Below are positions 4,606-62,944 of a DNA stretch of 64,000 nt, one piece after another. Position 1 is the first letter of the stretch. Each line of letters opens with the position of its first letter. Both the position numbers and the translations under genes were made by a program. The DNA lies in sequence record OL960580; one strand, written 5' to 3'. Source of the stretch: Escherichia phage vB_EcoM_SA21RB. The notes beneath the pieces are model-generated. The model ran no database searches and was not told where the DNA came from. It was given only the letters and a program-made list of their open reading frames with translations.

Positions 4606-4609
4606 AATT

Positions 4610-4981
4610 TCACTCAAATTTAATGGCTTGAAGAAGACTAATAATTCTCAAGCGACTTCTTTCATCTTTAACCGTAAATGAAAGAGGGTCACCAGATTTC
4701 ATAGTGATAGTACATTCAAAATCAAAATCTTCAGGAACTTCTTCGAAGAAGTCAAATTCTTCGTCATAAATTAGAACATTACTCTGAAAACTGTGAAGAA
4801 TTTTTCCATCATTTCCAGATGCTGTACTAATCATTGTAACATTATGGCCTTTCATATCTTCAACGATAAATTCGCTTGTAGATATTACGGCATTAATAGA
4901 ACCATTCCTATAAATAGAAGAAAGTAAATATTTCTTTTCTTCACCTTCGCGAACACGATATTTCTTACCGATTTTAAACAT
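4610..4981 (-). CDS. hypothetical protein
   Basis: 123-aa ORF with ATG start, tightly tiled with neighbours. Confidence 0.5.
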   Translation of the reverse strand: MFKIGKKYRVREGEEKKYLLSSIYRNGSINAVISTSEFIVEDMKGHNVTMISTASGNDGKILHSFQSNVLIYDEEFDFFEEVPEDFDFECTITMKSGDPLSFTVKDERSRLRIISLLQAIKFE

Positions 4982-5810: not shown

Positions 5811-6080
5811 TTAATTGAACAGTGGAGCGATGCGTTTCAGAAGAGTAGCAGCACCTTTGGCGAATTTTACATCATGAAAAACAGTTTCTTCTTCCGTTAC
5901 AACACGAGCTTTAATGTTTTCACAATCCCAATTTTTACGAACAATCTTCAAAAGCTGCAGTAAATCTTTACATTCAGCAATATCGATAACACATCCACGA
6001 GAATCTTCCATTATCGCACGATAACCGTAAGCCATACCATAATCGTTGAAAGACTGTTCGATGATAATTAAGTTTTCCAT
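5811..6080 (-). CDS. hypothetical protein
   Basis: ORF track start is TTG 6092; ATG at 6080 with GGAG SD gives 89 aa; preceded by a promoter-leader cassette. Confidence 0.5.
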   Translation of the reverse strand: MENLIIIEQSFNDYGMAYGYRAIMEDSRGCVIDIAECKDLLQLLKIVRKNWDCENIKARVVTEEETVFHDVKFAKGAATLLKRIAPLFN

Positions 6081-6187
6081 TTTATTCTCCAAGTTGTTTT
6101 CTGTATCAGTAGTTGATATTGATATAGTACCATAATCAACTACCGATGTATATAGTTTTATGAAAAAATTTTAAACTTTATGCAAAT

Positions 6188-6607
6188 TTATGCTAAAGCT
6201 GCTTCGCACCATTTTTTAATTTGGAATTCAGGAACTACCATGAACTGGCCTGCAAAAACAATATTGTAGAGCTTGACGCCATCTTCTACCCAACGGTCCG
6301 AAATAAAACCAGCGACTTGATTCGTTGTCCATGGAGTTCCATCTGTTGCCGCCGCAATTGTGAATTTATGGTCTTTTACAACTAAAACTGAAGAACAAAG
6401 TTTCCATTTAAATGCGCTTTCTTCTGGCTCAATGAACTGGCTTGAGACATAACCAATGTTACCATCAGCGTCACGAACTTTAACCTCGTTACGACCAAAA
6501 ACTGGATCACTCACAGAAAGAACTTCAACCAGCTTTCCTGCAACTTTAGAACGAGAAGCAACGGATACATATACGTAATCACCAGTAGAGAGATTTACAA
6601 TATTCAT
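6188..6607 (-). CDS. hypothetical protein, paralogue family member A
   Basis: 139 aa; N-terminus and C-terminal motif GFISDRWVEDGVKLYNIVFAGQF shared with the next two genes. Confidence 0.6.
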   Translation of the reverse strand: MNIVNLSTGDYVYVSVASRSKVAGKLVEVLSVSDPVFGRNEVKVRDADGNIGYVSSQFIEPEESAFKWKLCSSVLVVKDHKFTIAAATDGTPWTTNQVAGFISDRWVEDGVKLYNIVFAGQFMVVPEFQIKKWCEAALA

Positions 6608-6616
6608 AATAATTCC

Positions 6617-7093
6617 TTAAGCTTTACGAGGAGAAGCATAACGAGTGATTTCAGATTCTTCAACAACCCGGAAGTCACCTAAAAATACAATATTGTATAG
6701 CTTTTTACCGTCTTCAATCCATTGGTCTGTAATGAAGCCACACATCCTATCAGTTTTACTTGGACCAGCGAAATCATCAATATAATCGAATTTTTCAGCA
6801 GTTACAAATTCAACGCCTTTGCACAATGGCCATTTAAATTGTGCATTAGGCTTAGTGGATTCAACTTCTTTAACAGAAGCAAAATGAGCGCTAACACGAG
6901 TTTCCAGAAATTTAGGACTTACGTAAGCGTACTGAGTTTCAATTTTTCCAGAACTAGGAATGATTCGAACTTTAACTTCTTTAACACGACCAGTACCATT
7001 AGTACGAAGTCCTACCACTTCAACTAGACGACCTGCAGCTTTAGAACGGGATTTATCAGATACACGAGCAATTTCACCAATATTAATAATCAT
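6617..7093 (-). CDS. hypothetical protein, paralogue family member B
   Basis: 158 aa; ...SRSKAAGRLVEV and GFITDQWIEDGKKLYNIVFLGDF motifs. Confidence 0.6.
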   Translation of the reverse strand: MIINIGEIARVSDKSRSKAAGRLVEVVGLRTNGTGRVKEVKVRIIPSSGKIETQYAYVSPKFLETRVSAHFASVKEVESTKPNAQFKWPLCKGVEFVTAEKFDYIDDFAGPSKTDRMCGFITDQWIEDGKKLYNIVFLGDFRVVEESEITRYASPRKA

Positions 7094-7169: not shown

Positions 7170-7712
7170 TTAATTTAAAATAGCTACCACAGCACTACGA
7201 GGTACTACACTAAAATCACCTGCATGAACAACGTTCAGAAGTTCAACACTATCTTCAACCCACTGGTCTGTTACCCAACCACAGACCGAAATAAATGGGG
7301 TCTTGATAGCTACAGCACGAGTTAGAAGGTCGGTAGGGTCTTGTTCTTCAACTTCTTGGAACAGGATGAACTCTGCTTCATAAACCAGGATTTTCTCCAT
7401 TTTGTTATTGTCTAAACGACGACCGTGGACAATATAAGATTTAGTAAACCATTTACTTTTTTCAAAGTCTTCAACGGTAAATTCGCCTTCGCCAAAAACA
7501 TCAGTCAAAGTTTTATGGCCGGAAATCAAGGCATTAGTTTTAATTTCAGGTTCAACCAGTTTGTAGGTTTTGCCGATTTCAATAGCAGTAGTCATAGTAG
7601 GTTCCTTAATTTCCAGTGGTTTAACAGGGCATACATAAGTGCTTACAACATCAAAATCAATCAGTTTAGCTACCGGATTTGGTGTGTATTCAGGATTATA
7701 ATTAAATTTCAT
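7170..7712 (-). CDS. hypothetical protein, paralogue family member C
   Basis: 180 aa; C-terminal GWVTDQWVEDSVELLNVVHAGDF motif. Confidence 0.6.
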   Translation of the reverse strand: MKFNYNPEYTPNPVAKLIDFDVVSTYVCPVKPLEIKEPTMTTAIEIGKTYKLVEPEIKTNALISGHKTLTDVFGEGEFTVEDFEKSKWFTKSYIVHGRRLDNNKMEKILVYEAEFILFQEVEEQDPTDLLTRAVAIKTPFISVCGWVTDQWVEDSVELLNVVHAGDFSVVPRSAVVAILN

Positions 7713-7714
7713 AT

Positions 7715-8218
7715 TTATCTCATTTCAATAAAATCTACGAGTTCAGCATGCGATTTACGGAACATTACTTGGTGTCCGCCAATTATAACTTCATCTTCAG
7801 GAACTTCGTATACAGCGAGATAAAATCCTTTGGAAGATAATTCTTCACGCTCTTCTCGAGTAAACCATCTCATCATATCATATTCACTAGCGAAAGCAAA
7901 ATGATAAAGAGCTATAAACCATCCTGGAATATAGTGATCTACGCCTACATATTCCTCTTTCTCAAATTTAGTATTAATTGCTATATTAGCATTTTTAACT
8001 AATAATTTGTCTTCGCGCGGAAGAGGAATTCTTTTGTTATCATTACTATGATGTGTAAAATTAGGTCTATCATAACCTACGTGTAATAACCACTCTTCGC
8101 TCCATGAATCTATTATACTCCTGTATGGCGTTATTTGAACACAAAGATTTCGACGTATTGTTATAGCATCTTCACAATTAAGAATACTAAACGATGATTC
8201 AACACGATAAATTTTCAT
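7715..8218 (-). CDS. MotB-like protein (by position and size)
   Basis: ORF track extends to 8365 through the dexA 3' end and promoter; ATG at 8218 with GAGG SD gives 167 aa MKIYRVESS... Confidence 0.5.
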   Translation of the reverse strand: MKIYRVESSFSILNCEDAITIRRNLCVQITPYRSIIDSWSEEWLLHVGYDRPNFTHHSNDNKRIPLPREDKLLVKNANIAINTKFEKEEYVGVDHYIPGWFIALYHFAFASEYDMMRWFTREEREELSSKGFYLAVYEVPEDEVIIGGHQVMFRKSHAELVDFIEMR

Positions 8219-9446: not shown

Positions 9447-9693
9447 GAATAGCTTCCTCAAATTTAATCAACAGCTTACAGACACTTTCATCTAATGTAA
9501 TTACCGTGTCTGTGTTACTATGATATGATTGTTTTTCAATTCGTTTAATTGCTAGTATAGTATCACTTATAAGATTAAGCTTATAAAGGAGCTCAGCTCC
9601 TGTTACCATAACACTGAGGTTATCTTGCTTATCAGTATGCTTCTTTATACCATCTATTAGACGATTTAAATATTTTGAATTGATGTTAATCAT
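9433..9693 (-). CDS. small hypothetical protein
   Basis: 86 aa; ATG with GAGGA SD. Confidence 0.5.
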   Translation of the reverse strand: MININSKYLNRLIDGIKKHTDKQDNLSVMVTGAELLYKLNLISDTILAIKRIEKQSYHSNTDTVITLDESVCKLLIKFEEAIRGNN

Positions 9694-9699
9694 ATATCC

Positions 9700-15887: not shown

Positions 15888-16097
15888 TTAAATTACATGA
15901 CTATTTATAATAAATTCTCGCGGAACGTTAAAATACCCAATTTTAGTTAATATAACAACATCACCGTTAATAATTACCGGAGAATAATCTTCTGGAGCAT
16001 TAAATTTCCAATGGGCTCTAATATTATATCCATCAGAACCAAATGCTCGAGTAGCCGGTCTCCCGGCTTTTTGCCACGCGTAGAAATCAAATTTCAT
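15888..16097 (-). CDS. small hypothetical protein
   Basis: 69 aa, ATG start, between soc and gene 56. Confidence 0.45.
   Translation of the reverse strand: MKFDFYAWQKAGRPATRAFGSDGYNIRAHWKFNAPEDYSPVIINGDVVILTKIGYFNVPREFIINSHVI
15902..15909 (-). promoter_or_regulatory. T4 late promoter for soc
   Basis: minus strand reads exactly TATAAATA about 30 nt upstream of the soc ATG. Confidence 0.55.
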
Positions 16098-16288
16098 TTT
16101 GAATGATCTATAATTAATTTTAAAGCTTCTTCACTGACAAAAATTTCGTCAGGACCTTCTATAACTTCAACCATACGAAGTTGATTAGTTAAGAGCTCAC
16201 ACACGAGCTCTTTGTTATAATCTTTAAATAGCTGGTCAATACGTTTCTTATGGGCTTTCTTAAGCTGACGCTTATTTAAACGAGCCAT
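16094..16288 (-). CDS. small hypothetical protein
   Basis: 64 aa, ATG start; overlaps neighbours by a few nt. Confidence 0.45.
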   Translation of the reverse strand: MARLNKRQLKKAHKKRIDQLFKDYNKELVCELLTNQLRMVEVIEGPDEIFVSEEALKLIIDHSK

Positions 16289-16806
16289 TAATAACCTCGG
16301 TCTTGACGAGCGAAGTTTTCAGCATTTTTCAGATAATAAAGTTTAAAGATTTCTTCTGCTGTAAGACCAAGACCTTGGAACATGTTCAGAACGAAATGGA
16401 GAATATCAATCATTTCAAACTTAATTTCTAACTGGTCTTGTGGAGACAAATCAGTAATCAGAGTTTCACGACGTTCACCATGCTGCGACTTCCAAGGTTT
16501 CCATACAGCAGATGCATCTTTTTCACCATTACTCATACCACCAAGAGAAGTCAGAAGTTCACGGAATTCATCGTCAATATAATCTTTCTGATTACGCAAC
16601 CAATCAACAACTTCACCTGCAGTAGCCAAATCATCAGGATGACGGTTATATTCAGGTTTATCTTTAGCTAAACGAATCTGCAGAGATTTCTGCATGTCAA
16701 GCATTACCTGCAGCGGGTCTTTTTCATCACCGAGAATATCCCAATATTCATTTTGAGCTTTATCAGCGCCTTCAATCAGTTGTGAACATTCATTAAAATA
16801 TGCCAT
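16288..16806 (-). CDS. 56: dCTP pyrophosphatase (MazG-like)
   Basis: ORF track extends to 16899; ATG at 16806 with AAGGA SD gives 172 aa MAYFNECSQ...; position between soc and 61. Confidence 0.8.
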   Translation of the reverse strand: MAYFNECSQLIEGADKAQNEYWDILGDEKDPLQVMLDMQKSLQIRLAKDKPEYNRHPDDLATAGEVVDWLRNQKDYIDDEFRELLTSLGGMSNGEKDASAVWKPWKSQHGERRETLITDLSPQDQLEIKFEMIDILHFVLNMFQGLGLTAEEIFKLYYLKNAENFARQDRGY

Positions 16807-18271: not shown

Positions 18272-18628
18272 TTAACCTCTATTCATAAAAGCATTAAAAA
18301 TTTGGTCATCAATAGATGGTGCAGTAATATTTTCTGCATCATTTAGCAAATCATTAATTTCATCAGATAGCATAACACATGTACCTTTATTTCCTGTAAT
18401 TGTTACTGCGCAATTACGAACGTTTTCTTTATTAAATTTTAGGTTAATATTTTCGTAATGAAAATCCTTTAATGCTGAATATATTTTTAAAATAAAATTA
18501 TCTTTTACTACAATAAACCCAACCTCACTATTAAAACGTGGTTCATGGAAACTGTAATAAACCTTTTCATCTATAAAATCGTATGAAATTTTTTCCATTT
18601 TTAAATATGAAAATTCAGAACTATACAT
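18272..18628 (-). CDS. hypothetical protein (paralogue of 18630..19262)
   Basis: 118 aa; C-terminus SIDDQIFNAFMNRG shared with the next gene. Confidence 0.5.
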   Translation of the reverse strand: MYSSEFSYLKMEKISYDFIDEKVYYSFHEPRFNSEVGFIVVKDNFILKIYSALKDFHYENINLKFNKENVRNCAVTITGNKGTCVMLSDEINDLLNDAENITAPSIDDQIFNAFMNRG

Positions 18629-21554: not shown

Positions 21555-21917
21555 TTAAAAGAATTTAAATTTTTTCTTTGACCTTTTATTAAATGCATCT
21601 TGTAGTTGCATTGTAATACATTTTTCTACATGAGGAGCTAACTCAGCTTTTCTTTCTTGGTCAAGAACAGCAAAGTCCATTACGACTTTTCCATCAACCC
21701 AATCTAATTTTGTCACATACACAATGTGTGTAGAACCATCTTCTAGTTTAATGACAATCTCCTGGATAACATTTTCCATGGCAGATTTAATTATCTTAAG
21801 AGATTCATTAAAAAGACGTTCTTTTCTTTCTTCTTCCCCCTCCGAAGAGGGGGACTCGTCGATAATTTCTAGATCTAAATCTAAATCATCTTTATTCATT
21901 AAATTCTTCCATATCAC
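21555..21917 (-). CDS. 40: gp40-like protein (head assembly factor), start uncertain
   Basis: ORF track start is GTG 21917 (120 aa); alternative ATG 21899 lies 2 nt after the uvsX stop; identity by position between 41 and uvsX. Confidence 0.6.
   Translation of the reverse strand: MIWKNLMNKDDLDLDLEIIDESPSSEGEEERKERLFNESLKIIKSAMENVIQEIVIKLEDGSTHIVYVTKLDWVDGKVVMDFAVLDQERKAELAPHVEKCITMQLQDAFNKRSKKKFKFF
21836..21853 (-). other. C(UUCG)G-type hairpin inside the gene 40 coding sequence
   Basis: minus RNA CCCCCUC-UUCG-GAGGGGG, 7-bp GC stem, encodes ...PSSEGEE... Confidence 0.4.
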
Positions 21918-23073
21918 TTAACTGATCTAGGTCAGTTTCTAAATCAGCTGCTGATTTACTTTTACTTTCTGGAGATTTAAATTTTTCAACCTTTGAGTTA
22001 ATTAATTCGTCAACTTCAGCTTCAACAATTTCATTACTATCAATAGCACCTAACTGATAAGCACGTTTAATAGCATCTCGGAATGGCTGATGTTTAAATA
22101 AAGGACCCCAGAATGTAGTGCAATTGGTATCTTTTGCGCGCCAAGATTTTTCTTCGCGAATCATCTCACCGGTTTCTTCATCAAGAAATTCACGAGCATA
22201 CCAGCCATTTTTAGGTTTTACCACAAATCCTAATTCAAGAGCCATATCTAACAATCCAGAATAAGGATCGATACCACCGTCAAATTTAACATCAATAAAG
22301 AATTTACTTTTTTCTTTGACGGTACGAGATTTTTCTACATTTAGAACAAATTGATACCCCTGAAGATCAGAACCATCTTTAATCTGGCGCTTACCGATAA
22401 TGAATACAGTATCAGCCGAATACATTACGCCTGTACCACCTGTCATCACGGTTTTACTAAACATTTCAATTGTTTCAATTGTATGGTTAACCGCAACGCA
22501 CGGAATGTTTTTAATACTAAAATAAGGAGTAACAATACGGAATAATGACTTCAGTGATTTAGCACGAGTCATATCTGCCACGGATTTTTCATTCAAGGCA
22601 TCTTCCGTTTCTTTCTTAGAAGCCATATTACCGATTGAGTCGATGAATACAATAACTTTTTCACCACGCTCAATAGCTTCAAGCTGATTCACCATATCAA
22701 TTTTCAGCTGTTCAACTGACTGAATTGGCGTATGAATTACTCGTTCCGGGTCAACTCCCATGGATCGCAAATAAGCTGGAGTAATACCAAATTCGCTATC
22801 ATAGAATAAACAAACCGCATCAGGATATTTGTTCAAATACGCCGCAACCATAGTCAAAGACATATTTGATTTAAAGTGTTTAGAAGGACCTGCAAAAATA
22901 GTTAAACCAGACTGCATACCACCATCAATCGCGCCGGAAATAGCGATATTGAGCATTGGAATTTTTGTACGGATTACATCCTTTTCATTAAAGAATTTAG
23001 ATGTAGTCAGTTCAGCAGTCATTTTAGAAGTGGAAGCTTTAATCAAACGGGATTTTAAATCTGCAATAGACAT
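21892..23073 (-). CDS. uvsX: UvsX recombinase (RecA-like)
   Basis: 393 aa MSIADLKSRLIKASTSK...; RecA-fold Walker A GPSKHFKS; matches my memory of T4 UvsX. Confidence 0.95.
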   Translation of the reverse strand: MSIADLKSRLIKASTSKMTAELTTSKFFNEKDVIRTKIPMLNIAISGAIDGGMQSGLTIFAGPSKHFKSNMSLTMVAAYLNKYPDAVCLFYDSEFGITPAYLRSMGVDPERVIHTPIQSVEQLKIDMVNQLEAIERGEKVIVFIDSIGNMASKKETEDALNEKSVADMTRAKSLKSLFRIVTPYFSIKNIPCVAVNHTIETIEMFSKTVMTGGTGVMYSADTVFIIGKRQIKDGSDLQGYQFVLNVEKSRTVKEKSKFFIDVKFDGGIDPYSGLLDMALELGFVVKPKNGWYAREFLDEETGEMIREEKSWRAKDTNCTTFWGPLFKHQPFRDAIKRAYQLGAIDSNEIVEAEVDELINSKVEKFKSPESKSKSAADLETDLDQLSDMEEFNE

Positions 23074-23126
23074 TCATTTTTTCCATAGGCATCATTATAT
23101 TTTCCTCACTGGTTAAAGATAGAGTA

Positions 23127-23151
23127 ATTATAACACAATAAATTTAGGCAT
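23127..23151 (-). promoter_or_regulatory. middle-type (MotA-box) promoter for uvsX
   Basis: minus strand AATGCCTAA (MotA-box-like), 11 nt, TATAAT. Confidence 0.4.
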
Positions 23152-23993
23152 TAATCAACTGCTATTGGATGAATAGCATTAAACTTATGAAACGCTTCTG
23201 ATTTTTCTTTGCGCGAAACACACATGCGAAGAACCTTTAATGGCTCGTCTTCTTCACCCAACGATTTTCGTTTTTCAATATTAGAAGTTTTCCAACGAGC
23301 TTGCTCTGGAAACTCTTTATTGATTTGCTCAAGAGCTCTATTATGTTTTGAATTACTACGAATTGAACTACATCCGCCTGGAGCTTGTGCTTTTCCAGAC
23401 ACAACCAGATATTTGAACAAAGCCAAATGCGGATAACCTTGGTTAATTAAATTGAGAAATGCATACATATCTTCGCATAAATCAATTTTTCCATACCCAA
23501 TTTGTTCTGTAGTAAGTTTCCCGAGGTCATACCAAGTATTCGTGAATCCATATGAATTTTCACGATAATTACCCCAAGATGAAGTAATTTTAAAAATAGG
23601 TAGACGAGCATGACCATGATAATACCCGCAATCCATGGCATCTTCAACGTATTGAATCAATTCATAGAACTGTTCACGAGTTAATTGATTAATTTTATCT
23701 ACGCAGCGACGATCATCTCTCTTTCGCATTGAACTCATACGAATAGTAGTATCATCATCAATCATCCAAATTCGTTGACCTGCATACATATCAGTAATTG
23801 CTTTACGAGTTCCAGCAATTCCATTAACATCATCAGGAATAGTTATAATTTTAGCCCTAGACCCGTAAGCGTCATAATAAGCTTTTTCTTCATGTTCACG
23901 TACTACAATATGAGGTTCATAATCAGTCGGAAACATATCAAGGGCAGAAACTGCCCCTACGCGTTGATAGCTTGGAATTACGAATTGAATCAT
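23151..23993 (-). CDS. DXD-motif glycosyltransferase at the T4 beta-gt locus (not T4 beta-gt)
   Basis: ORF track start is GTG 23999; ATG 23993 overlaps the gene 42 stop (ATGA), giving 280 aa; WMIDDDTT DXD motif; no resemblance to the T4 Bgt sequence I recall. Confidence 0.7.
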   Translation of the reverse strand: MIQFVIPSYQRVGAVSALDMFPTDYEPHIVVREHEEKAYYDAYGSRAKIITIPDDVNGIAGTRKAITDMYAGQRIWMIDDDTTIRMSSMRKRDDRRCVDKINQLTREQFYELIQYVEDAMDCGYYHGHARLPIFKITSSWGNYRENSYGFTNTWYDLGKLTTEQIGYGKIDLCEDMYAFLNLINQGYPHLALFKYLVVSGKAQAPGGCSSIRSNSKHNRALEQINKEFPEQARWKTSNIEKRKSLGEEDEPLKVLRMCVSRKEKSEAFHKFNAIHPIAVD

Positions 23994-24730
23994 TTCCACT
24001 CACCGTTATAATCTTTTTTCGCAATATGAGTTTCGCCAGTTTTCCACCAATGGTCAACCAAATAAAAATGACGGGAATACACATGAAGGCTTCCGACATT
24101 CCATATAATGGAACCTGCTTTATACTGACGAGTTGAATCACCTGCATTCAAATCAGATACTAATTTATCTAGTACATATTTTTGCCATGCATAATCATTA
24201 CGGAATCCGAAGACCACGTCATTTGAACGCATGTTAACCACTGCATTAATTTTCTTATCACGAATCAGGTATTGTACTGTATTAGTACACATGAAATCTG
24301 ACATACCATCTTTATTGTAGTCAAACTGCATGGATGGACGAGTATAAATCATGATACCACGTCGAGAATCAGGATTTTGACCAAGTTCAGCTAAACACAT
24401 GTCATACTGGGCATAGTTATCTTCTGACCAGATGGCCCAACCATAATTCGAGTTAATTTCGCCTTTAGAAGATGCTACCTGCTGCCAAATCTTTGGTGTT
24501 TCACCTGGAATATCTTTAACAAACAGACTTTGAGACTTATACCATTCAAGTTCACGCTGAATGTATTCATCATTAAGAGCGCCAAAAATAAAAGGTTCAT
24601 CTGCTACAAATGATGCACCAATAATTTCAATAGTTTTAACCCCGGTTTTATCAATTACGAAATCTTTTTCCTTTAATGCAAGACCCAAATCAAGACGGAT
24701 TTCTTCAACTGTCATATAATCGTTAATCAT
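23990..24730 (-). CDS. 42: dCMP hydroxymethylase
   Basis: 246 aa; thymidylate-synthase-like fold; length and position as in T4. Confidence 0.93.
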   Translation of the reverse strand: MINDYMTVEEIRLDLGLALKEKDFVIDKTGVKTIEIIGASFVADEPFIFGALNDEYIQRELEWYKSQSLFVKDIPGETPKIWQQVASSKGEINSNYGWAIWSEDNYAQYDMCLAELGQNPDSRRGIMIYTRPSMQFDYNKDGMSDFMCTNTVQYLIRDKKINAVVNMRSNDVVFGFRNDYAWQKYVLDKLVSDLNAGDSTRQYKAGSIIWNVGSLHVYSRHFYLVDHWWKTGETHIAKKDYNGEWK

Positions 24731-24837
24731 TTAAACCTCAATTGATGCATTCATATTTAATTTGTAACAGTAATAAACTCCAACCTATAATAAGTGGCGG
24801 AATCATAAGAGGAACTGTTACGCTATAGTATATACTT

Positions 24838-24866
24838 ATTATAATCATCAAGATTAAAAGCAATAC
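24838..24866 (-). promoter_or_regulatory. middle-type promoter for gene 42
   Basis: minus strand TTGCTTTTA (MotA box), 11 nt, TATAAT in the imm-42 gap. Confidence 0.45.
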
Positions 24867-24883
24867 TGCTAAAATTTTGCTTT

Positions 24884-25135
24884 TCATTCCTTCTCTCTGA
24901 TGATAATTACTCGATTTTGCTGTACAGATTTTTTAGTTTCACCCGCAATTGACCAAATAAATGTAATAAACCAACCAATGATTGACCAGTTAAACAGTAA
25001 AGATGTGAAAAAGATTCCTACTGTCGATTTTGACCCACGCATCAAGGCGATGAACCATGGAAGCATGTATATAATAATAGCCAACACGCCTGAAACTAAA
25101 ACCATAAAAATTGAACCTGCTACTAAAGTTTCCAT
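24884..25135 (-). CDS. imm: Imm superinfection immunity protein
   Basis: 83 aa with two TM segments; length and position as in T4. Confidence 0.85.
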   Translation of the reverse strand: METLVAGSIFMVLVSGVLAIIIYMLPWFIALMRGSKSTVGIFFTSLLFNWSIIGWFITFIWSIAGETKKSVQQNRVIIIREKE

Positions 25136-25142
25136 GTTTTCC

Positions 25143-25523
25143 TCACTTAGTCAAATTTTTTACACATGAATTATAAGAATTTACTACATACTCCATCGGA
25201 GCATTTTTACCGGTACGCCATTGGTAATTATTAGCCCAATTTGCCCAAAGTTCAGCACAGTAGTTTTCAATTTTTTCTTCACGCGTAATCACATCTGAAT
25301 TACGATATGCTTGTGCAGATTCATCTGGACGAATAGCTTCGTCAAAATTCGCCTGCATTTGTTCTACTGTCTGTTTTGGAGCCTCTTTATAACACTTGAC
25401 GTTAGGATTATAAAATTTGCTTGAACAGTTTACAATTTTTCCTACATCAGACTGATTTACTACTGGTCCTTGAGCTACACATCCAGTAAGACCCAATGCA
25501 ATAACCAAAATAGCGATTTTCAT
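25143..25523 (-). CDS. lipoprotein
   Basis: 126 aa; MKIAILVIALGLTGC lipobox. Confidence 0.55.
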   Translation of the reverse strand: MKIAILVIALGLTGCVAQGPVVNQSDVGKIVNCSSKFYNPNVKCYKEAPKQTVEQMQANFDEAIRPDESAQAYRNSDVITREEKIENYCAELWANWANNYQWRTGKNAPMEYVVNSYNSCVKNLTK

Positions 25524-25533
25524 AATAATTTCC

Positions 25534-25770
25534 TCAAATACAAGTAGTAATTACTCCAGTAGTGCTTACACAGGTATTACCTAATTGAACACCCAGCGTT
25601 CCATTAGTATTCATATGAAGATTATCATCAATTTTTGTTGATACTTTACCATTCATGTGAATAATAGTATTAGATTCAATCACATTCTGAGTGTCATTTT
25701 CAATATCAATAAATGGAACAGTTGCTAATGCAACTAAACACACTGCTAAACAACCATAAACAATTTTCAT
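25534..25770 (-). CDS. small secreted protein
   Basis: ORF track extends to 25881 through the promoter; ATG 25770 with GGAG SD gives 78 aa MKIVYGCLAVCLVALATVPF... Confidence 0.5.
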   Translation of the reverse strand: MKIVYGCLAVCLVALATVPFIDIENDTQNVIESNTIIHMNGKVSTKIDDNLHMNTNGTLGVQLGNTCVSTTGVITTCI

Positions 25771-35380: not shown

Positions 35381-36583
35381 TTATTTTGTAATAATGTCAA
35401 ACTGCTCTTTAAAGCAGAAGCTTGAATCTTGATGCTGATACAAAAATTCATATGCTTTTTCTCGCTCACGATCATAAAGAGCTCGGTCAGATGACAGTTC
35501 TTTAATACGTTCAAATGTTGATTCCATATCATTTTCATCAAACCAAATGATACCGCTATCATGCGAGGTCAAAGGAGTATTATCAACACGGAATTTTAAA
35601 TTTTCGCCAGTAGATTTCCAAAATACCGGAATTGTTCCACATGCACCAAGCTCGAGATGAGTATATTCTAAAGAACGTTGTAGATATTTTTTATCTAATT
35701 TACTCAGCTGATAACCAAATCCGGATTTACTCATGCGTTCAAGCATTTCGCTATTTACATAACGGTCGAGAATTTGCGTTGGCAAATTAGGAGCAATTTT
35801 AATTTGGTCTACTTGATGAAGACGATAATACTCGTATGGAATTCCTTTTTCTTTAATAGGAATGAATGCTGGAGAACGTTCCAGACCTTCCATAATAGTA
35901 CTTAGTCCTGCAGGTTTAAGATGTTTTTCGTGAAAATCAAACATCTGATAAAAGCCTTTCCATGTAGTAGTACGACCAATCCAACGGTTGATATTCATGT
36001 TAATTTCAGAAACATCTTTCCAGTAAGTTGATCGAACCTTCGCAATATCCATAGGAGGCTGGAAGTTATATACGGTCGGTGCTTCTTCAATATCATCAAA
36101 CAGAGAAACAGTTTCCGGATACCATTCTTTCATCAGAACTTTATTAAAATCACCATTATCAGAATGACTAAAAATAACATCAGCTCGACGAACAGTTTCT
36201 TCTAATCCCAAATTTCGACGTAAAGAAAGAGAAGAATGGTCATGTTGATAAACTACAACACGAACCGAAGGTTTAATGTTATCAATAATTTTTTTATAGT
36301 TATTAATTGTGTCTTCTTCGACTGAAGTAGCAGGAACTGAATTGATAATTAGAATATCACAATCATTTACCAGCTTAAGTGTTTTATCGTATTCTTTTGC
36401 CAATAAAACCGGAATTGAAAATGACTTATAATCATGCGCGCAATTACGAGTAAATGATTTATCTTTAGCATAAACCAAAGTTACTTCATGACCATTTTTA
36501 ATAAACCAATCACGCTGCTCAAGAGAAAATTTAGTTACGCCACAACCTTCAAGACCTCGAGCCATAAAAATGCATACTTTCAT
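35381..36583 (-). CDS. a-gt: alpha-glucosyltransferase (hmC DNA)
   Basis: 400 aa; ...CIFMARGLEGCGVTKFSLEQRDWFIKNGHEVTLVYAKDKSF... matches my memory of T4 Agt. Confidence 0.9.
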   Translation of the reverse strand: MKVCIFMARGLEGCGVTKFSLEQRDWFIKNGHEVTLVYAKDKSFTRNCAHDYKSFSIPVLLAKEYDKTLKLVNDCDILIINSVPATSVEEDTINNYKKIIDNIKPSVRVVVYQHDHSSLSLRRNLGLEETVRRADVIFSHSDNGDFNKVLMKEWYPETVSLFDDIEEAPTVYNFQPPMDIAKVRSTYWKDVSEINMNINRWIGRTTTWKGFYQMFDFHEKHLKPAGLSTIMEGLERSPAFIPIKEKGIPYEYYRLHQVDQIKIAPNLPTQILDRYVNSEMLERMSKSGFGYQLSKLDKKYLQRSLEYTHLELGACGTIPVFWKSTGENLKFRVDNTPLTSHDSGIIWFDENDMESTFERIKELSSDRALYDREREKAYEFLYQHQDSSFCFKEQFDIITK

Positions 36584-38077: not shown

Positions 38078-38155
38078 TTTCACCTCTTAGCTCAATTCAT
38101 AGATCTATTATATCATAATATTTGAAGATCTATCTTAAAGCATAGAGGATATCAG

Positions 38156-38425
38156 TTATCTAAGTAAGCAGTATGCTTGAAACACTTTCTCCATCATCTT
38201 TTTAAATTCGTGAATATCTATATAATGACTAGTTAAATCAGCATGATATAAAAAGTCTAAAAACTTTTCATGTGTGCTAGCATATTCACTTTCATTTAAT
38301 TCAGAAACATGGCTTTCCCAATACCCAACACCAGTCTTATTTGGGAAAAATGAAATTTTCATGCATTGATCAACATAGAAAATGCCATAATTTTCAATAG
38401 TAATAGAAATATTAATAAATTTCAT
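38156..38425 (-). CDS. hypothetical protein
   Basis: 89 aa. Confidence 0.5.
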   Translation of the reverse strand: MKFINISITIENYGIFYVDQCMKISFFPNKTGVGYWESHVSELNESEYASTHEKFLDFLYHADLTSHYIDIHEFKKMMEKVFQAYCLLR

Positions 38426-39978: not shown

Positions 39979-40302
39979 TTAATCTTCTATGATATCTCTA
40001 TCATATCCAAGTGAAATGAGAGTTTCTTTGAAGTGTTTAATGTTCTTTTGTCTAGAATCATTAATGAAAATGACTGGATAACGAATGTTAAGAGATGTGA
40101 ATCCAGCGCGTTTAGCAAGAGATACAATCAGTGGACGATCATACTCAATCTTACCATTATTAGTGAGGACTTTATAAAATGTATAAGGAGCATTGAGCTC
40201 CTTTAAAAGTTTTGTAACTGATTGACATCCAGGACAACGACCTACTTCATCTGGAATTCCATAGACTTCAATCTTATTCTTTAAGTTCGAGTTTTGTTCC
40301 AC
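39979..40302 (-). CDS. glutaredoxin/NrdH-like redoxin, start codon uncertain
   Basis: CPGC active site in ...IEVYGIPDEVGRCPGCQSV...; no in-frame ATG nearby; candidates are GTG 40302 or ATT 40272; the track's 150-aa extension from GTG 40431 looks spurious. Confidence 0.55.
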   Translation of the reverse strand: MEQNSNLKNKIEVYGIPDEVGRCPGCQSVTKLLKELNAPYTFYKVLTNNGKIEYDRPLIVSLAKRAGFTSLNIRYPVIFINDSRQKNIKHFKETLISLGYDRDIIED

Positions 40303-40585
40303 GAGAAATAATTCCTTGGTAAGCCCAATAAGGAGGATTAACAGAATCCTCACCAGAGTTTTCTTCAGGAAAATAAACCTGGATAACAAATCCAGACGCA
40401 TCAAAGGTAAAATAAACCGTAGGTAGTTCACCTAACAATTCGGCACGAGTATTAATTTCTTCGAGATCTCGTTCACGTCCAGCCCAAAAACTAGGATTTA
40501 GACTACATTCGTAAAAATAATAGTCATTACCGAACATATCAAAACCCTTCCAACTCTCTACCACATACCGCTCAAAACTAATCAT
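40274..40585 (-). CDS. hypothetical protein
   Basis: 103 aa. Confidence 0.5.
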   Translation of the reverse strand: MISFERYVVESWKGFDMFGNDYYFYECSLNPSFWAGRERDLEEINTRAELLGELPTVYFTFDASGFVIQVYFPEENSGEDSVNPPYWAYQGIISRGTKLELKE

Positions 40586-40587
40586 AA

Positions 40588-40803
40588 TTAAGCCTTTTTA
40601 TCAAGAACAGAATTCAGCTTGTTAGTAATTTTATCCAGACGCTCATTAAACTCACTAGAAGATAAGCCCTTTTCTGGAGAAATTAAACTAATAACGAAAA
40701 ATATAGCAATAAAAGGAATAAGGAAAATAGCTCCAACTGCCATAAACAGAAAGAATGTTACAGTTGTAAGAAAATCAGCTAAACCTTTACGAAATTTATA
40801 CAT
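40588..40803 (-). CDS. small membrane protein
   Basis: 71 aa with one long hydrophobic segment. Confidence 0.5.
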   Translation of the reverse strand: MYKFRKGLADFLTTVTFFLFMAVGAIFLIPFIAIFFVISLISPEKGLSSSEFNERLDKITNKLNSVLDKKA

Positions 40804-44612: not shown

Positions 44613-44622
44613 TTTTCACCAA

Positions 44623-44832
44623 TTAATTTCGCAATTTATTAAGTTCTTCATAATCAATCCAGGATTCTAATCCTGATGGCAAATCAGATTCAATTTCCCA
44701 AAGAAGCTCTTCAATTTTCTGAAGACGATCTAATTCTTCGGCTGGAATAGTAACCATTGACGGAGTTCTTGATACACTAATATCGTAAATCATATTTACC
44801 CCAGTTTGACCATGCAATCGCCATATTTCCAT
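44623..44832 (-). CDS. small hypothetical protein, start uncertain
   Basis: 69-aa ORF; alternative ATG at 44793 would give 56 aa without overlap. Confidence 0.4.
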   Translation of the reverse strand: MEIWRLHGQTGVNMIYDISVSRTPSMVTIPAEELDRLQKIEELLWEIESDLPSGLESWIDYEELNKLRN

Positions 44833-45011
44833 TTAGAAATAGACTTTTCACCGTTAGAATAATAAACTTCGAGTTTAGCACGATTATTTTTAATTTGAAT
44901 AACCTTTGCTGTCATCAAAGTTCCATACCCGTAATAAACTGCGACTTCATCACCTACATATACCGCGCTTCCGCGGTAGTCATGGATATAATCAGTTCCT
45001 TCGAGCATCAT
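44796..45011 (-). CDS. small hypothetical protein
   Basis: 71 aa; start overlaps the nrdC stop. Confidence 0.45.
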   Translation of the reverse strand: MMLEGTDYIHDYRGSAVYVGDEVAVYYGYGTLMTAKVIQIKNNRAKLEVYYSNGEKSISKWKYGDCMVKLG

Positions 45012-52215: not shown

Positions 52216-52272
52216 TTTATTCTCCTTTGATTTGATAGGACTACTATAACATAGTCCTATCAGTTTGTATAC

Positions 52273-52473
52273 TTATTTTGACATTTCTTCGATGTCACGA
52301 CGATACCCGTCACGAACTTCACGAAGAGCTTCAAGGCCACACATAGGCTCGATACCAGTAATGTGAACTTGATTAATCTGATACTCTACATCTTCTAACT
52401 GAGTGAAAACATAACGACGTTCAGCTGCGCACCCAGATTTAGCTTTACCGAAACGTTTATTCAAAGTAGTCAT
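52273..52473 (-). CDS. small hypothetical protein
   Basis: 66 aa directly behind a promoter cassette. Confidence 0.5.
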   Translation of the reverse strand: MTTLNKRFGKAKSGCAAERRYVFTQLEDVEYQINQVHITGIEPMCGLEALREVRDGYRRDIEEMSK

Positions 52474-52510
52474 TTTGTATCTCCAATTTACTCATTTGTT
52501 TTGATAGTTG

Positions 52511-52592: not shown

Positions 52593-53606
52593 TCATTTAT
52601 AATAACTTCGGTGGTTTTCAAGATAGACCTTCTCAAGGAAGTCATCCCAGAAACCCATGTCCACTTTTTGCTGCATACCGTTCTTAGAAGCTTCAGTAGA
52701 TGCTGCTTCTACTTGATCGACCACATCTTCCAAAAACTCTTGAACTGTTTTAAATGGATGTTTACCCAACTTCACGTCGAGAATAAATGGAGCATCTTGG
52801 AGTGGATAAACCAAGTCACCAGTTTTGTAAATTTCCAATAGTTGAAGTCCACCACGACAAGCATGGCTCAGAGCTTTCCAGTCAATGCCTTCATTGGCTT
52901 CGGCCTTACGAGCACGTTCACCGTATTCAGCATCTAATTTGTTCAGTGACTGTTTAAGCTCAATAAGAGAAAGAGTTGTCTGATATTTACGACCCAACAC
53001 AGTGTAGAACGTTTGTGGGCCTGTTTTCTCATGATTATGGAACACCCATTCACAGAATTCGTTTTCTGGAAGACGATGCTTAATATCTTCAACTTTAGTG
53101 CGACGTTGCTTAATGGAACCGTCTTCTTGGTAATCAACCCATTGCTCAGGGATTTGATTAACTACTTTCAATACATCACGTAATGCAGCCAAACGAGAAC
53201 CCTTGACACCGTATTTAGAAGCTTGCTTGCGAACATATCCTAAATAGGATTTCATGTTAGTCGTATAAAAACGAGAACGATTGTCTTGAATAAACTTCCA
53301 CACATCAGGCAAATCAGATTTAACCACTAGTTCAGGTGGAGTGTGAAGCATATCCAATGCTACAGTTTCACCATCTGCTGCTAATTTAAAGAAATATTTA
53401 AGACTGTATAGTTCATGGTCAATATCATCTTTAGTGTTTTTAGATGATGTGTTGTTAGTGTTTTTACTCATGTGTTCTTTGACATTTCCGATAAGAATAT
53501 CGCGAGCAGGAGGAACAAAGATTTCTTTAAAATCTACATCAGATTCTGGAGTAGAAGTTCCATAAAGATGACTACCAAAATAGCTTTTCATTACTGTTTT
53601 CATCAT
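52593..53606 (-). CDS. Pol-beta-superfamily nucleotidyltransferase
   Basis: 337 aa; N-terminal GSHLYGTSTPESDVDF (G[SG]x9-13DxD) and a downstream acidic residue (VALDML). Confidence 0.6.
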   Translation of the reverse strand: MMKTVMKSYFGSHLYGTSTPESDVDFKEIFVPPARDILIGNVKEHMSKNTNNTSSKNTKDDIDHELYSLKYFFKLAADGETVALDMLHTPPELVVKSDLPDVWKFIQDNRSRFYTTNMKSYLGYVRKQASKYGVKGSRLAALRDVLKVVNQIPEQWVDYQEDGSIKQRRTKVEDIKHRLPENEFCEWVFHNHEKTGPQTFYTVLGRKYQTTLSLIELKQSLNKLDAEYGERARKAEANEGIDWKALSHACRGGLQLLEIYKTGDLVYPLQDAPFILDVKLGKHPFKTVQEFLEDVVDQVEAASTEASKNGMQQKVDMGFWDDFLEKVYLENHRSYYK

Positions 53607-54064
53607 TCAGCCTTATATTCAATAACAGGACATACTTTAGCTTTACGAGCTTTTAAAAATTCGACGATAATCGATTTCTTGGGTTGAATAGGAGGTAAAC
53701 CTTTATACGCTCTATCAATATTTTCTACGTGTAAAGCATAATCCTTTTTCCATTTATAATCTTTATATTTTTCACGCAAATGTGCAGGAATAACAAATGA
53801 ACCGATAATAAGTAAAACAACCAAAAGTGCAAGTATAAATGCCGATGGAAGAAGAGTCCATAAACTACCGAAAATAAGCCAACGTTGTAGGCTTTCTGCA
53901 CAAATAATTGTTAACCCTACGAGTATAGCACACCCAAAAATAGAAACGAAAAATGTAGGAATGGCAATAGACCAAAAATATGCGCATAATGTCTTAGGTC
54001 GTTGCCATTCATCGTTAAACAATTTGAATAATTTATAGTGCCAAGAGTTTTCATTAATAATCAT
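53603..54064 (-). CDS. membrane protein
   Basis: 153 aa with at least three hydrophobic helices. Confidence 0.55.
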   Translation of the reverse strand: MIINENSWHYKLFKLFNDEWQRPKTLCAYFWSIAIPTFFVSIFGCAILVGLTIICAESLQRWLIFGSLWTLLPSAFILALLVVLLIIGSFVIPAHLREKYKDYKWKKDYALHVENIDRAYKGLPPIQPKKSIIVEFLKARKAKVCPVIEYKAE

Positions 54065-54066
54065 AA

Positions 54067-54588
54067 TTATCCTTTCATTGAAGGCGTAACGGTTGTTAAA
54101 TACTTAATCATAGCTTCAGCTTCTGATTTTGATAATGAAATTTCTCCATTGTTTTGACGAATAGAAATAAAATCCGGATGACGGTCACCACCAGCTTTTA
54201 AAACACACATATAAGTATCAACTTCACCTTCAATATTTGAAATGATTGAAGCAGTTCCACATGAATGTGGTTTTTGATAAATCAATGCAGCTTTTCTTCC
54301 ACCGTTTGACTGTTCATAGGCTTTTAATACATCAAGCAAATCAGTTCTTTTATCAATAGCTAAAATGTTATTTTCATCCTCAATGTTAAATCCTTCGGAT
54401 ACTTCATAAAGTGTTACCCATAAATCACCGATGTCAATAACAGCATTTACGCTTCCACGGCTTTCAAGAGTATGACAAATTTTCTTGATTTCATCATAAC
54501 TCATTTTAATAATATCATCTCCTTGACTAAGGAAGATGTCATTTTTAAATTCAACACGAATTAAACCACTTTCACTTGAAATAAACAT
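54067..54588 (-). CDS. hypothetical protein (paralogue of 54595..55152)
   Basis: 173 aa; C-terminus SKSEAEAMIKYLTTVTPSMKG resembles the neighbour's. Confidence 0.55.
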   Translation of the reverse strand: MFISSESGLIRVEFKNDIFLSQGDDIIKMSYDEIKKICHTLESRGSVNAVIDIGDLWVTLYEVSEGFNIEDENNILAIDKRTDLLDVLKAYEQSNGGRKAALIYQKPHSCGTASIISNIEGEVDTYMCVLKAGGDRHPDFISIRQNNGEISLSKSEAEAMIKYLTTVTPSMKG

Positions 54589-57692: not shown

Positions 57693-57701
57693 ATCACCTT
57701 C

Positions 57702-57887
57702 TTAAAGCGTATTCACATAAGCTATTAATTCGTTTTCTTTCTTATCAAACCGATCAGCAAATTCTTCTTGCTGTTCGGGAGATAGCGGGCCGTATTCATC
57801 ATAAAAGGTGTTTGCTTCTGTATGCTCATCTAGAAGTTCATGGATAAGCTCAAACAATTTATCTTTTTGTTCTTTACTCAGACTCAT
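57702..57887 (-). CDS. small hypothetical protein
   Basis: 61 aa, acidic. Confidence 0.45.
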   Translation of the reverse strand: MSLSKEQKDKLFELIHELLDEHTEANTFYDEYGPLSPEQQEEFADRFDKKENELIAYVNTL

Positions 57888-58056
57888 ATATTAATTCCAG
57901 GAGTTTTAAAATAATTCGCTTTTGCTTAAATATTTCCATAGTTAAATGACCAGTATCTTTTTGACCGATTCCAATGGCAAAACCTTTATTAACAGCGAGT
58001 TCAATTAAATTATCAAGCTCACGTAACACTTCGTATTGTAACTCAAAACTATTCAT
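57874..58056 (-). CDS. small hypothetical protein
   Basis: 60 aa. Confidence 0.45.
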   Translation of the reverse strand: MNSFELQYEVLRELDNLIELAVNKGFAIGIGQKDTGHLTMEIFKQKRIILKLLELIYESE

Positions 58057-58280
58057 TTTGGTTTACCTTCTTTAACGAAATCAGGATAAGGATAAAATCC
58101 TGAATAAAATCCTTCACCTTTATGATTGATGCATCCTTTATTAGAACAATAGCACCAATAATCGAAATCACAAGTCATTTCATCGTTGCATAAAGCAAAA
58201 ACAACCGGCCACTTACACTTTTCACAGTGGGCATTTTTAAGAATACTAGTTTGGCTCATAACCATGTAACCTTTAAGCAA
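58053..58280 (-). CDS. small Cys-rich protein
   Basis: 75 aa; CEKCKW...CNDEMTC...CYCSNKGC. Confidence 0.45.
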   Translation of the reverse strand: MLKGYMVMSQTSILKNAHCEKCKWPVVFALCNDEMTCDFDYWCYCSNKGCINHKGEGFYSGFYPYPDFVKEGKPK

Positions 58281-62470: not shown

Positions 62471-62944
62471 TTATTTGAATGATTTGACGTACTGAATAGA
62501 ACCTTTACTATTCACGAAAGCGATTTTACCATTTTTATTATACATGGTAGCAGTACGCTGATAGCCATAAGTTTGTTTACCAGATTGATAACCAACTAAT
62601 GCGAAATTATCTTCACCCATTTTATTCTGTTTAGCGCGAATACGTTCATGACCGTGTGCCATAAGAACCTTAGCATCACCAGTTGCAATGGATCGACGAG
62701 TTTTTTCATCTTCAACTGTATTAACAAAGTCGTCAAATGAATCAAATTTAGCATGAGATTTATTATACAGTTTTCCATCTACTGCATAATTATATCCTTG
62801 TACATCCATCTCAACTTCTGTACCATCATCCAATACAGCAGTGATTTTCTGACCTTTTTTAAATTTCAAAAGATCAGTAAAAGATTCAGCAATAATTTGA
62901 GAATTAATAGCTGCTTCAGTAATAAATTCTTGATATGTTTTCAT
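62471..62944 (-). CDS. internal-protein-like head protein with capsid targeting sequence
   Basis: 157 aa starting MKTYQEFITEA, the conserved N-terminal targeting sequence of T4 internal proteins; length differs from T4 IPII. Confidence 0.7.
   Translation of the reverse strand: MKTYQEFITEAAINSQIIAESFTDLLKFKKGQKITAVLDDGTEVEMDVQGYNYAVDGKLYNKSHAKFDSFDDFVNTVEDEKTRRSIATGDAKVLMAHGHERIRAKQNKMGEDNFALVGYQSGKQTYGYQRTATMYNKNGKIAFVNSKGSIQYVKSFK

Follow-up and report, generated by a model that had tools for sequence, protein, structure and literature searches.

The DNA of T-even phages is modified in a pathway that leads from gp42, through incorporation of hmC into the DNA, to alpha-gt and, in T2 and T6, to a second enzyme (PMC6024577; PMC11078745; PMC13216743). 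This second enzyme, beta-glucosyl-HMC-alpha-glucosyltransferase, is referred to as ba-GT, g-gt or TAGT. The DNA of T6 without ba-gt (g-gt) contains alpha-glucosyl-hmC only and becomes a substrate of Brig1 and BapA (PMC11078745; bioRxiv 10.64898/2026.02.25.707755). LC-MS of the Durham-collection Tequatroviruses NR1, EH2, Solly and their relatives detected about 1/3 5hmdC and about 2/3 alpha-gentiobiosyl-5hmdC, with a trace of the alpha-glucosyl and none of the beta-glucosyl form, and TAGT was placed at a position syntenic with T4 beta-GT (PMC13390438). The TAGTs form a sister group to GT2, outside it; their co-occurrence with alpha-GT has been surveyed, an AF3 model of T6 TAGT has the GT-A fold and their biological function was described as "yet to be defined" (PMC13216743). 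As TAGT homologs are also found paired with beta-GT or standing alone (PMC13216743), the members of the wider family do not all share one acceptor specificity.

The sugars on hmC determine the host defences to which a T-even phage is exposed. Bare hmC is attacked by McrBC, hmC by Brig3 and alpha-glucosyl-hmC by Brig1. Glucosylated forms are the targets of GmrSD and BrxU, and the BapA deglucosylase cannot remove gentiobiose. The ba-GT genes of T2 and T6 were reportedly cloned by Winkler and Rueger in 1993.

Genomic organization of the locus

In the 64,000-nt stretch of Escherichia phage vB_EcoM_SA21RB that was analyzed (OL960580; hereafter the window), we identified a gene which is, with high confidence, a T2/T6-type beta-glucosyl-HMC-alpha-glucosyltransferase (ba-GT, g-gt, TAGT; PF20691) that makes gentiobiosyl-hmC. 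The locus, family, fold and product have already been published (PMC13216743; PMC13390438; PMC11078745), so the identification is useful for annotation and for phage choice and does not represent new biology. The first position of the window corresponds to T4 coordinate 1 (rIIA), and over 25 kb its identity with the phages ESh33, Solly, JLBYU24 and teqdroes is about 96%. In a blastn comparison with T4, homology runs through uvsX to position 23061 and is back at 24008, in the last codons of gene 42. The 946-nt segment in between, one of 16 stretches in the window without a T4 counterpart, stands where T4 has 1941 nt (segA and beta-gt). The locus is organized as follows.

21892-23073, minus strand: uvsX, downstream neighbour of the ba-GT gene (open reading frame; 87% nucleotide identity to T4 uvsX)
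23062-24007, no strand: segment without nucleotide homology to T4, replacing T4 segA and beta-gt
23151-23993, minus strand: coding sequence of the T2/T6-type beta-glucosyl-HMC-alpha-glucosyltransferase (280 amino acids plus stop)
23990-23993, minus strand: ATGA overlap of the ba-GT start codon and the TGA stop of gene 42 (read from the sequence)
23990-24730, minus strand: gene 42, dCMP hydroxymethylase making the hmC precursor (open reading frame; 94% nucleotide identity to T4 gene 42; annotated in PP01 and T2)

The first-pass annotation had proposed that the beta-gt locus of T4 is taken by another gene, encoding a 280-amino acid protein at 23151-23993 between uvsX and gene 42. Both the position, on the minus strand, and the flanking genes as read here agree with this proposal, which can be refined in that the T4 interval additionally carries the homing endonuclease gene segA, absent from the interval in the window. 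The mechanical open reading frame spans 23151-23999 on the minus strand (282 amino acids from a GTG at 23999). The ATG at 23993 gives a protein of 280 amino acids and is the start annotated for this gene in PP01, T2, NR1, EH2 and RB32. Gene 42 ends in GAG TGG AAA TGA and the ATG of ba-GT overlaps this TGA; the identical 4-nt overlap is annotated in the same five phages. The ATGA overlap suggests that ba-GT is translated together with gene 42 (translational coupling and co-transcription), which would fit an early DNA-modification function. The GC content across the gene (0.35-0.37) is like that of the neighbouring genes and its base composition is unremarkable.

The ba-GT open reading frame is far beyond chance. 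A megablast search identified the gene at a nucleotide identity of at least 90% in 478 phage records, and a full-length match of the protein (E=4e-89) was obtained with PHROG 842, likewise named beta-glucosyl-HMC-alpha-glucosyltransferase. The 478 records are from T4-like phages of Escherichia, Shigella, Yersinia and Salmonella and are mostly annotated as beta-glucosyl-HMC-alpha-glucosyl-transferase; gene 42 adjoins in all of them. With the protein as a query, tblastn found 689 records, with identities of 99.6% for PP01 and 98.6% for T2, a band of about 65% consisting of T4-like phages of Klebsiella, Enterobacter, Salmonella and Citrobacter, and lower identities for Serratia phages (48%) and PhiJL001 (23%). 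The protein in the window differs by one amino acid from its counterpart in PP01, by two (I101V and K226R) from EH2, by three from NR1 and by four of 280 from T2; the T6 record MH550421 differs by five residues and an amber codon. Comparison with the T2 and T6 glucosyltransferases, as recommended in the first-pass annotation, thus gives near-identity over the full length. The T2/T6-type arrangement that it anticipated is also present, with a protein of 280 amino acids between gene 42 and uvsX, the ATGA overlap, an intact alpha-gt and no beta-gt. We see no difference of substance from the T2 and T6 genes, except that Arg11 is kept, unlike in T2.

Family, fold and conserved residues

A Pfam search assigned the protein to PF20691 (TET-associated glycosyltransferase, TAGT) with 38.3 bits against a gathering threshold of 27.5 (E=1.8e-9). 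Residues 3-207 match profile positions 2-205 of 205, so that the whole profile is spanned, and Arg11, Arg63 and the DDD motif of the family are present. No match to Glycos_transf_2 was reported in this search at E-values up to 10. Eleven relatives were found in a k-mer-indexed homolog search with the protein alone, and 51 when the search was repeated with their alignment; residue conservation was counted in a family alignment of 47 sequences (A3). All five family-invariant residues of this alignment (Arg11, Arg63 and Asp79-Asp80-Asp81) are present in the protein. The positions discussed below are encoded at:

23751-23759, minus strand: DDD, residues 79-81, GT-A DXD metal/nucleotide-sugar motif (metal binding predicted; invariant in 47/47)
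23961-23963, minus strand: codon of Arg11 in the IPSYxR loop after strand beta-1 (invariant in 47/47; CGC in the window, CAT (His) in T2)
23469-23471, minus strand: codon of Asp175 (CEDMY), candidate catalytic base of an inverting GT-A enzyme (Asp in 41/47)

The GT-A-type DXD motif that had been noticed in the sequence, WMIDDDTT, corresponds to residues 76-83 (23745-23768, minus strand) and is a genuine family motif, its DDD being kept in all 47 members. The predicted structure consists of one Rossmann-like alpha/beta/alpha nucleotide-sugar binding domain with a GT-A fold. Structure prediction, which had been suggested as a check against a non-glycosyltransferase fold, therefore supports a glycosyltransferase. 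The structural neighbours of the model are mostly inverting GT-A enzymes, with clear similarity to GT2 enzymes, and among viral structure models the closest are proteins with a TAGT domain.

A search of PDB sequences with the single protein gave chance matches only (E>1). With the family profile the sole match was the GT2 glucosyltransferase 9jma, and this match was weak (E=0.11). In the weak profile alignment the DDD of ba-GT coincides with a DDD of 9jma and IPSYxR with IPTYNR, and the region of Asp175, in a profile segment of low score, lies at the ED of EEDWDF. The match of IPSYxR to IPTYNR suggests a role of Arg11 in nucleotide binding; alignment and fold together make Asp175 the putative catalytic base. 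The inverting, GT2-like GT-A enzymes, such as the PglI-like beta-1,3-glucosyltransferase AvpGT (9jma), TarS, TarP and BcsA, are only 8-16% identical to ba-GT. They act on a lipid, teichoic acid or glycan, whereas the acceptor of ba-GT is a sugar on duplex DNA.

The TAGT family owes its name to an association with the TET/JBP dioxygenases, enzymes that form 5hmC at the level of DNA. In the window, by contrast, the source of hmC is the neighbouring gp42, a dCMP hydroxymethylase of the thymidylate synthase type that works on the nucleotide pool, unlike the DNA-acting TET/JBP enzymes. Likewise, the acceptor of the TAGT in the window would be an already glucosylated base and not 5hmC itself.

Comparison with other phage DNA glycosyltransferases

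BLASTP of ba-GT against T4 beta-gt gave no significant alignment (best E=3.4 over 8 residues), and tblastn of T4 beta-gt, T4 segA and RB69 ORF003c against the whole 64,000-nt window gave no match. The protein had been described as having no resemblance to T4 Bgt, and homology to beta-gt, which would have spoken against a T2/T6-type enzyme, was indeed absent when looked for. A homolog of T4 beta-gt was consequently rejected for this gene: similarity is lacking and the model has a single GT-A domain, not the two domains of a GT-B enzyme. What T4 beta-gt and ba-GT have in common is the syntenic locus beside gene 42, hmC-containing phage DNA as substrate, a beta linkage and UDP-glucose as donor, the latter by inference for ba-GT. 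They differ in that T4 beta-gt is a GT-B enzyme placing the first sugar on hmC, whereas ba-GT is a GT-A enzyme placing the second sugar on alpha-glucosyl-hmC (PMC13216743 for the folds).

The enzyme could nevertheless be a functional analogue of T4 beta-gt that adds a first sugar to the hmC left bare by alpha-gt. The syntenic position agrees with this, as does the occurrence of distant TAGT homologs in phages without alpha-GT or beta-GT, some of which must use a non-glucosylated base (PMC13216743). However, EH2 and NR1, whose enzymes are two to three residues away, retain about one third bare hmC and have no beta-glucosyl-5hmdC (PMC13390438). Moreover, deletion of the gene in T6 turns gentiobiosyl-hmC into alpha-glucosyl-hmC and does not raise bare hmC (PMC11078745; bioRxiv 10.64898/2026.02.25.707755). 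A direct beta-glucosyltransferase of hmC is therefore extremely unlikely.

The acceptor of the T2/T6-type enzyme, alpha-glucosyl-hmC, would be supplied by a gene elsewhere in the window:

35381-36583, minus strand: alpha-glucosyltransferase (a-gt), maker of the alpha-glucosyl-hmC acceptor (400 amino acids, 92% identical to T4 a-gt, no gaps)

The alpha-gt gene is full-length and intact, as had been stated earlier. Since a-gt and ba-GT were found and beta-gt and ORF003c are absent, the window contains exactly two candidate DNA glycosyltransferases.

A second alternative is that the enzyme transfers arabinose, another hexose or some other non-glucose sugar, and a sugar-swap variant of this kind had been left as an option in the first-pass annotation. 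A few substitutions can change the donor specificity of GT-A enzymes. Nevertheless, the arabinosyltransferase candidate of RB69, ORF003c, is unlike ba-GT (BLASTP, best E=0.63), is predicted to be a GT-B enzyme (PMC6024577) and has no homolog in the window; an arabinosyltransferase was rejected on the lack of similarity and of a homolog. The residues in which the protein differs from the enzymes of phages with measured gentiobiose on their hmC (PMC13390438) are conservative replacements at variable columns of the family alignment. The sugar-swap option is accordingly unsupported and we regard it as scarcely credible. An altered specificity of this allele, for either the sugar or the acceptor, is very unlikely.

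Proposed pathway and predicted DNA modification

In the proposed pathway, gp42 would make hydroxymethyl-dCMP, which the phage polymerase would incorporate into DNA as hmC at replication. Alpha-gt would then place alpha-glucose on about 70-75% of the hmC, and ba-GT would transfer a second glucose from UDP-alpha-D-glucose, in beta-1,6 linkage, to alpha-glucosyl-hmC, giving gentiobiosyl-hmC. For the enzyme in the window this reaction is assigned by analogy, the product and the genetic requirement being taken from the literature on its relatives. Within the enzyme, the DDD motif (79-81) would hold the metal and the UDP-sugar, nucleotide binding would involve R63 and the loop after strand beta-1 (P7-R11, IPSYxR), and D175 would be the likely catalytic base. 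A beta product from an alpha-linked donor can arise only with inversion of configuration, in agreement with the GT2-like GT-A fold.

Because ba-GT and alpha-gt are intact and beta-gt is absent, a DNA rich in gentiobiosyl-hmC as in T6 can be predicted, and with it the likely sensitivities to host defences. The intact invariant residues and the only two to three conservative differences from the EH2 and NR1 enzymes lead to the same prediction of T6-like DNA. By analogy with these phages, about two thirds of the hmC is predicted to be gentiobiosyl-hmC and about one quarter to one third bare hmC, with traces of alpha-glucosyl-hmC and no beta-glucosyl-hmC. The quantitative part of this prediction is less certain than the qualitative part, since near-identical alleles differ widely in modification (about 5% gentiobiosyl in T2 and about 72% in T6). 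Among the phages studied by LC-MS, a Dam-like gene occurs only in the subgroup Geo/EL/BGP, which has lower gentiobiosylation and a 1:2:2 ratio (PMC13390438). A tblastn search with T4 Dam methyltransferase found no homolog in the window, where T4 dam would fall near 16-17 kb. In this respect the window resembles the NR1/Solly group and not the Geo/EL/BGP group, a comparison that is a correlation only.

Allelic variation in T2 and T6

Between the ba-GT alleles of the window and NR1, 42 nucleotides differ and only three amino acids. This predominance of synonymous differences indicates strong purifying selection. Laboratory T-even stocks present other variants. All three translated T2 records (PV648363, LC348380 and AP018813) have R11H (CGT to CAT) and P251S. 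In the extracted loci the T2 gene is located at:

PV648363, L005:3001-3843: T2 ba-GT gene with R11H
LC348380, L008:3295-4137: T2 ba-GT gene with R11H
AP018813, L009:3283-4125: T2 ba-GT gene with R11H

With MH751506 included, R11H occurs in 4/4 distinct T2 sequences, as judged by inspection of codon 11 or by an exact 100-nt match. In megablast, a 100-nt T2 query was matched exactly by 8 of the 461 phage records, all of them T2 or SV76, and the sole difference of EH2 and RB32 from T2 in this stretch is codon 11 (CGT vs CAT). Degenerate-pattern scans of IMG/VR found the R11 allele in five contigs and the H11 allele in none, counts too few for a frequency.

The two sequenced T6 stocks carry other lesions, neither of which occurs in the ba-GT of the window. 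In MH550421 (L004:4138-4980) codon 10 is changed from CAG to TAG; the annotated ggt starts at Met20 and its product would be without strand beta-1. In AP018814 (L006:3135-3974) an in-frame change of (GAT)3 to (GAT)2 shortens DDD to DD. Judged from these alleles, gentiobiosylation may be lost or weakened in some sequenced T6 stocks.

Such variants bear on a third alternative, namely that the allele in the window is hypomorphic or inactive, as in T2, and that the DNA would carry mainly alpha-glucosyl-hmC despite the gene. T2 itself has a full-length gene and yet only about 5% gentiobiosyl-hmC (PMC6024577; PMC11078745), and the amber codon and the lost Asp of the T6 stocks demonstrate that lesions at this locus occur. 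The window, however, has Q10, R11, R63 and the full DDD, has neither frameshift nor stop and lacks R11H and P251S, both private to T2; the purifying selection indicated by the synonymous-dominated divergence also argues against inactivity. An impaired allele is thus highly unlikely, and the three alternatives (direct beta-glucosylation of hmC, another sugar and an inactive allele) remain improbable even when taken together. An active T2/T6-type ba-GT is the reading we retain.

The T2 enzyme differs from that of EH2, a phage with high gentiobiosylation, by R11H and P251S only. As R11 is invariant in 47/47 family members, a hypomorphic T2 enzyme could explain the difference between T2 and T6. 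We consider it possible, if rather doubtful, that natural allelic variation at the ba-GT locus sets the ratio of mono- to di-glucosylated hmC and that a hypomorphic T2 enzyme accounts for the approximately 5% in T2 as opposed to approximately 72% in T6. No statement of this hypothesis was found in the literature examined, and it is possibly a new point. If true, it would explain a 60-year-old difference between T2 and T6, and the intact allele in the window would predict the T6-like pattern.

Further features of the window

A 9-bp G+C-rich hairpin, TAGGGGCAG-TTT-CTGCCCTTG, is located at 23939-23959 (minus strand), within ba-GT codons 12-18 and about 35 nt downstream of the start codon. The local sequence of 51 nt has a folding energy of about -13.4 kcal/mol in RNAfold. 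The hairpin is identical in T6 and PP01 and is without a proper U-tract; in Yersinia phage fPS-65 a terminator is annotated within the ba-GT gene. In a promoter and terminator scan of 22900-25300, the count of terminator-like sites was not above that of shuffled controls (1 vs 1.2), and 10 promoter-like sites were found against 11.4 in the controls. The 77-nt spacer that separates the stop codon of ba-GT from the start of uvsX (23074-23150, minus strand) contains TGCCTAAA, 11 nt and TATAAT. On visual inspection this arrangement looks like a MotA-dependent (T4 middle) promoter for uvsX; the sigma-70 scan did not report the site.

At 62471-62944 (minus strand) the window encodes a 157-amino acid variant of an internal virion protein (PHROG 3155, E=6e-102), located in a stretch without nucleotide match to the ipII/ipIII region of T4. 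The protein begins with MKTYQEFI, which we take to be the capsid-targeting sequence that T-even internal proteins typically carry. Some internal proteins inhibit the GmrSD restriction enzymes, which are specific for glucosyl-hmC, and this would make the locus part of the same arms race as the hmC sugars.

No blastn match to T4 1-72000 was obtained for another fourteen stretches, each 200-960 nt long:

First part of the window: 4608-4978, 5873-6072, 6185-7031, 7283-7726, 9471-9699, 15910-16324 and 18317-18625
Remainder: 25524-25759, 38151-38410, 40279-40602, 44620-45006, 52226-52500, 53608-54569 and 57693-58254

The open reading frames in these stretches belong to PHROGs of unknown function, apart from two MotB-like paralogues (6188-6607 and 6617-7093) and a membrane protein (53603-54064). 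The fourteen stretches are the usual hyperplastic accessory content of T-even genomes.
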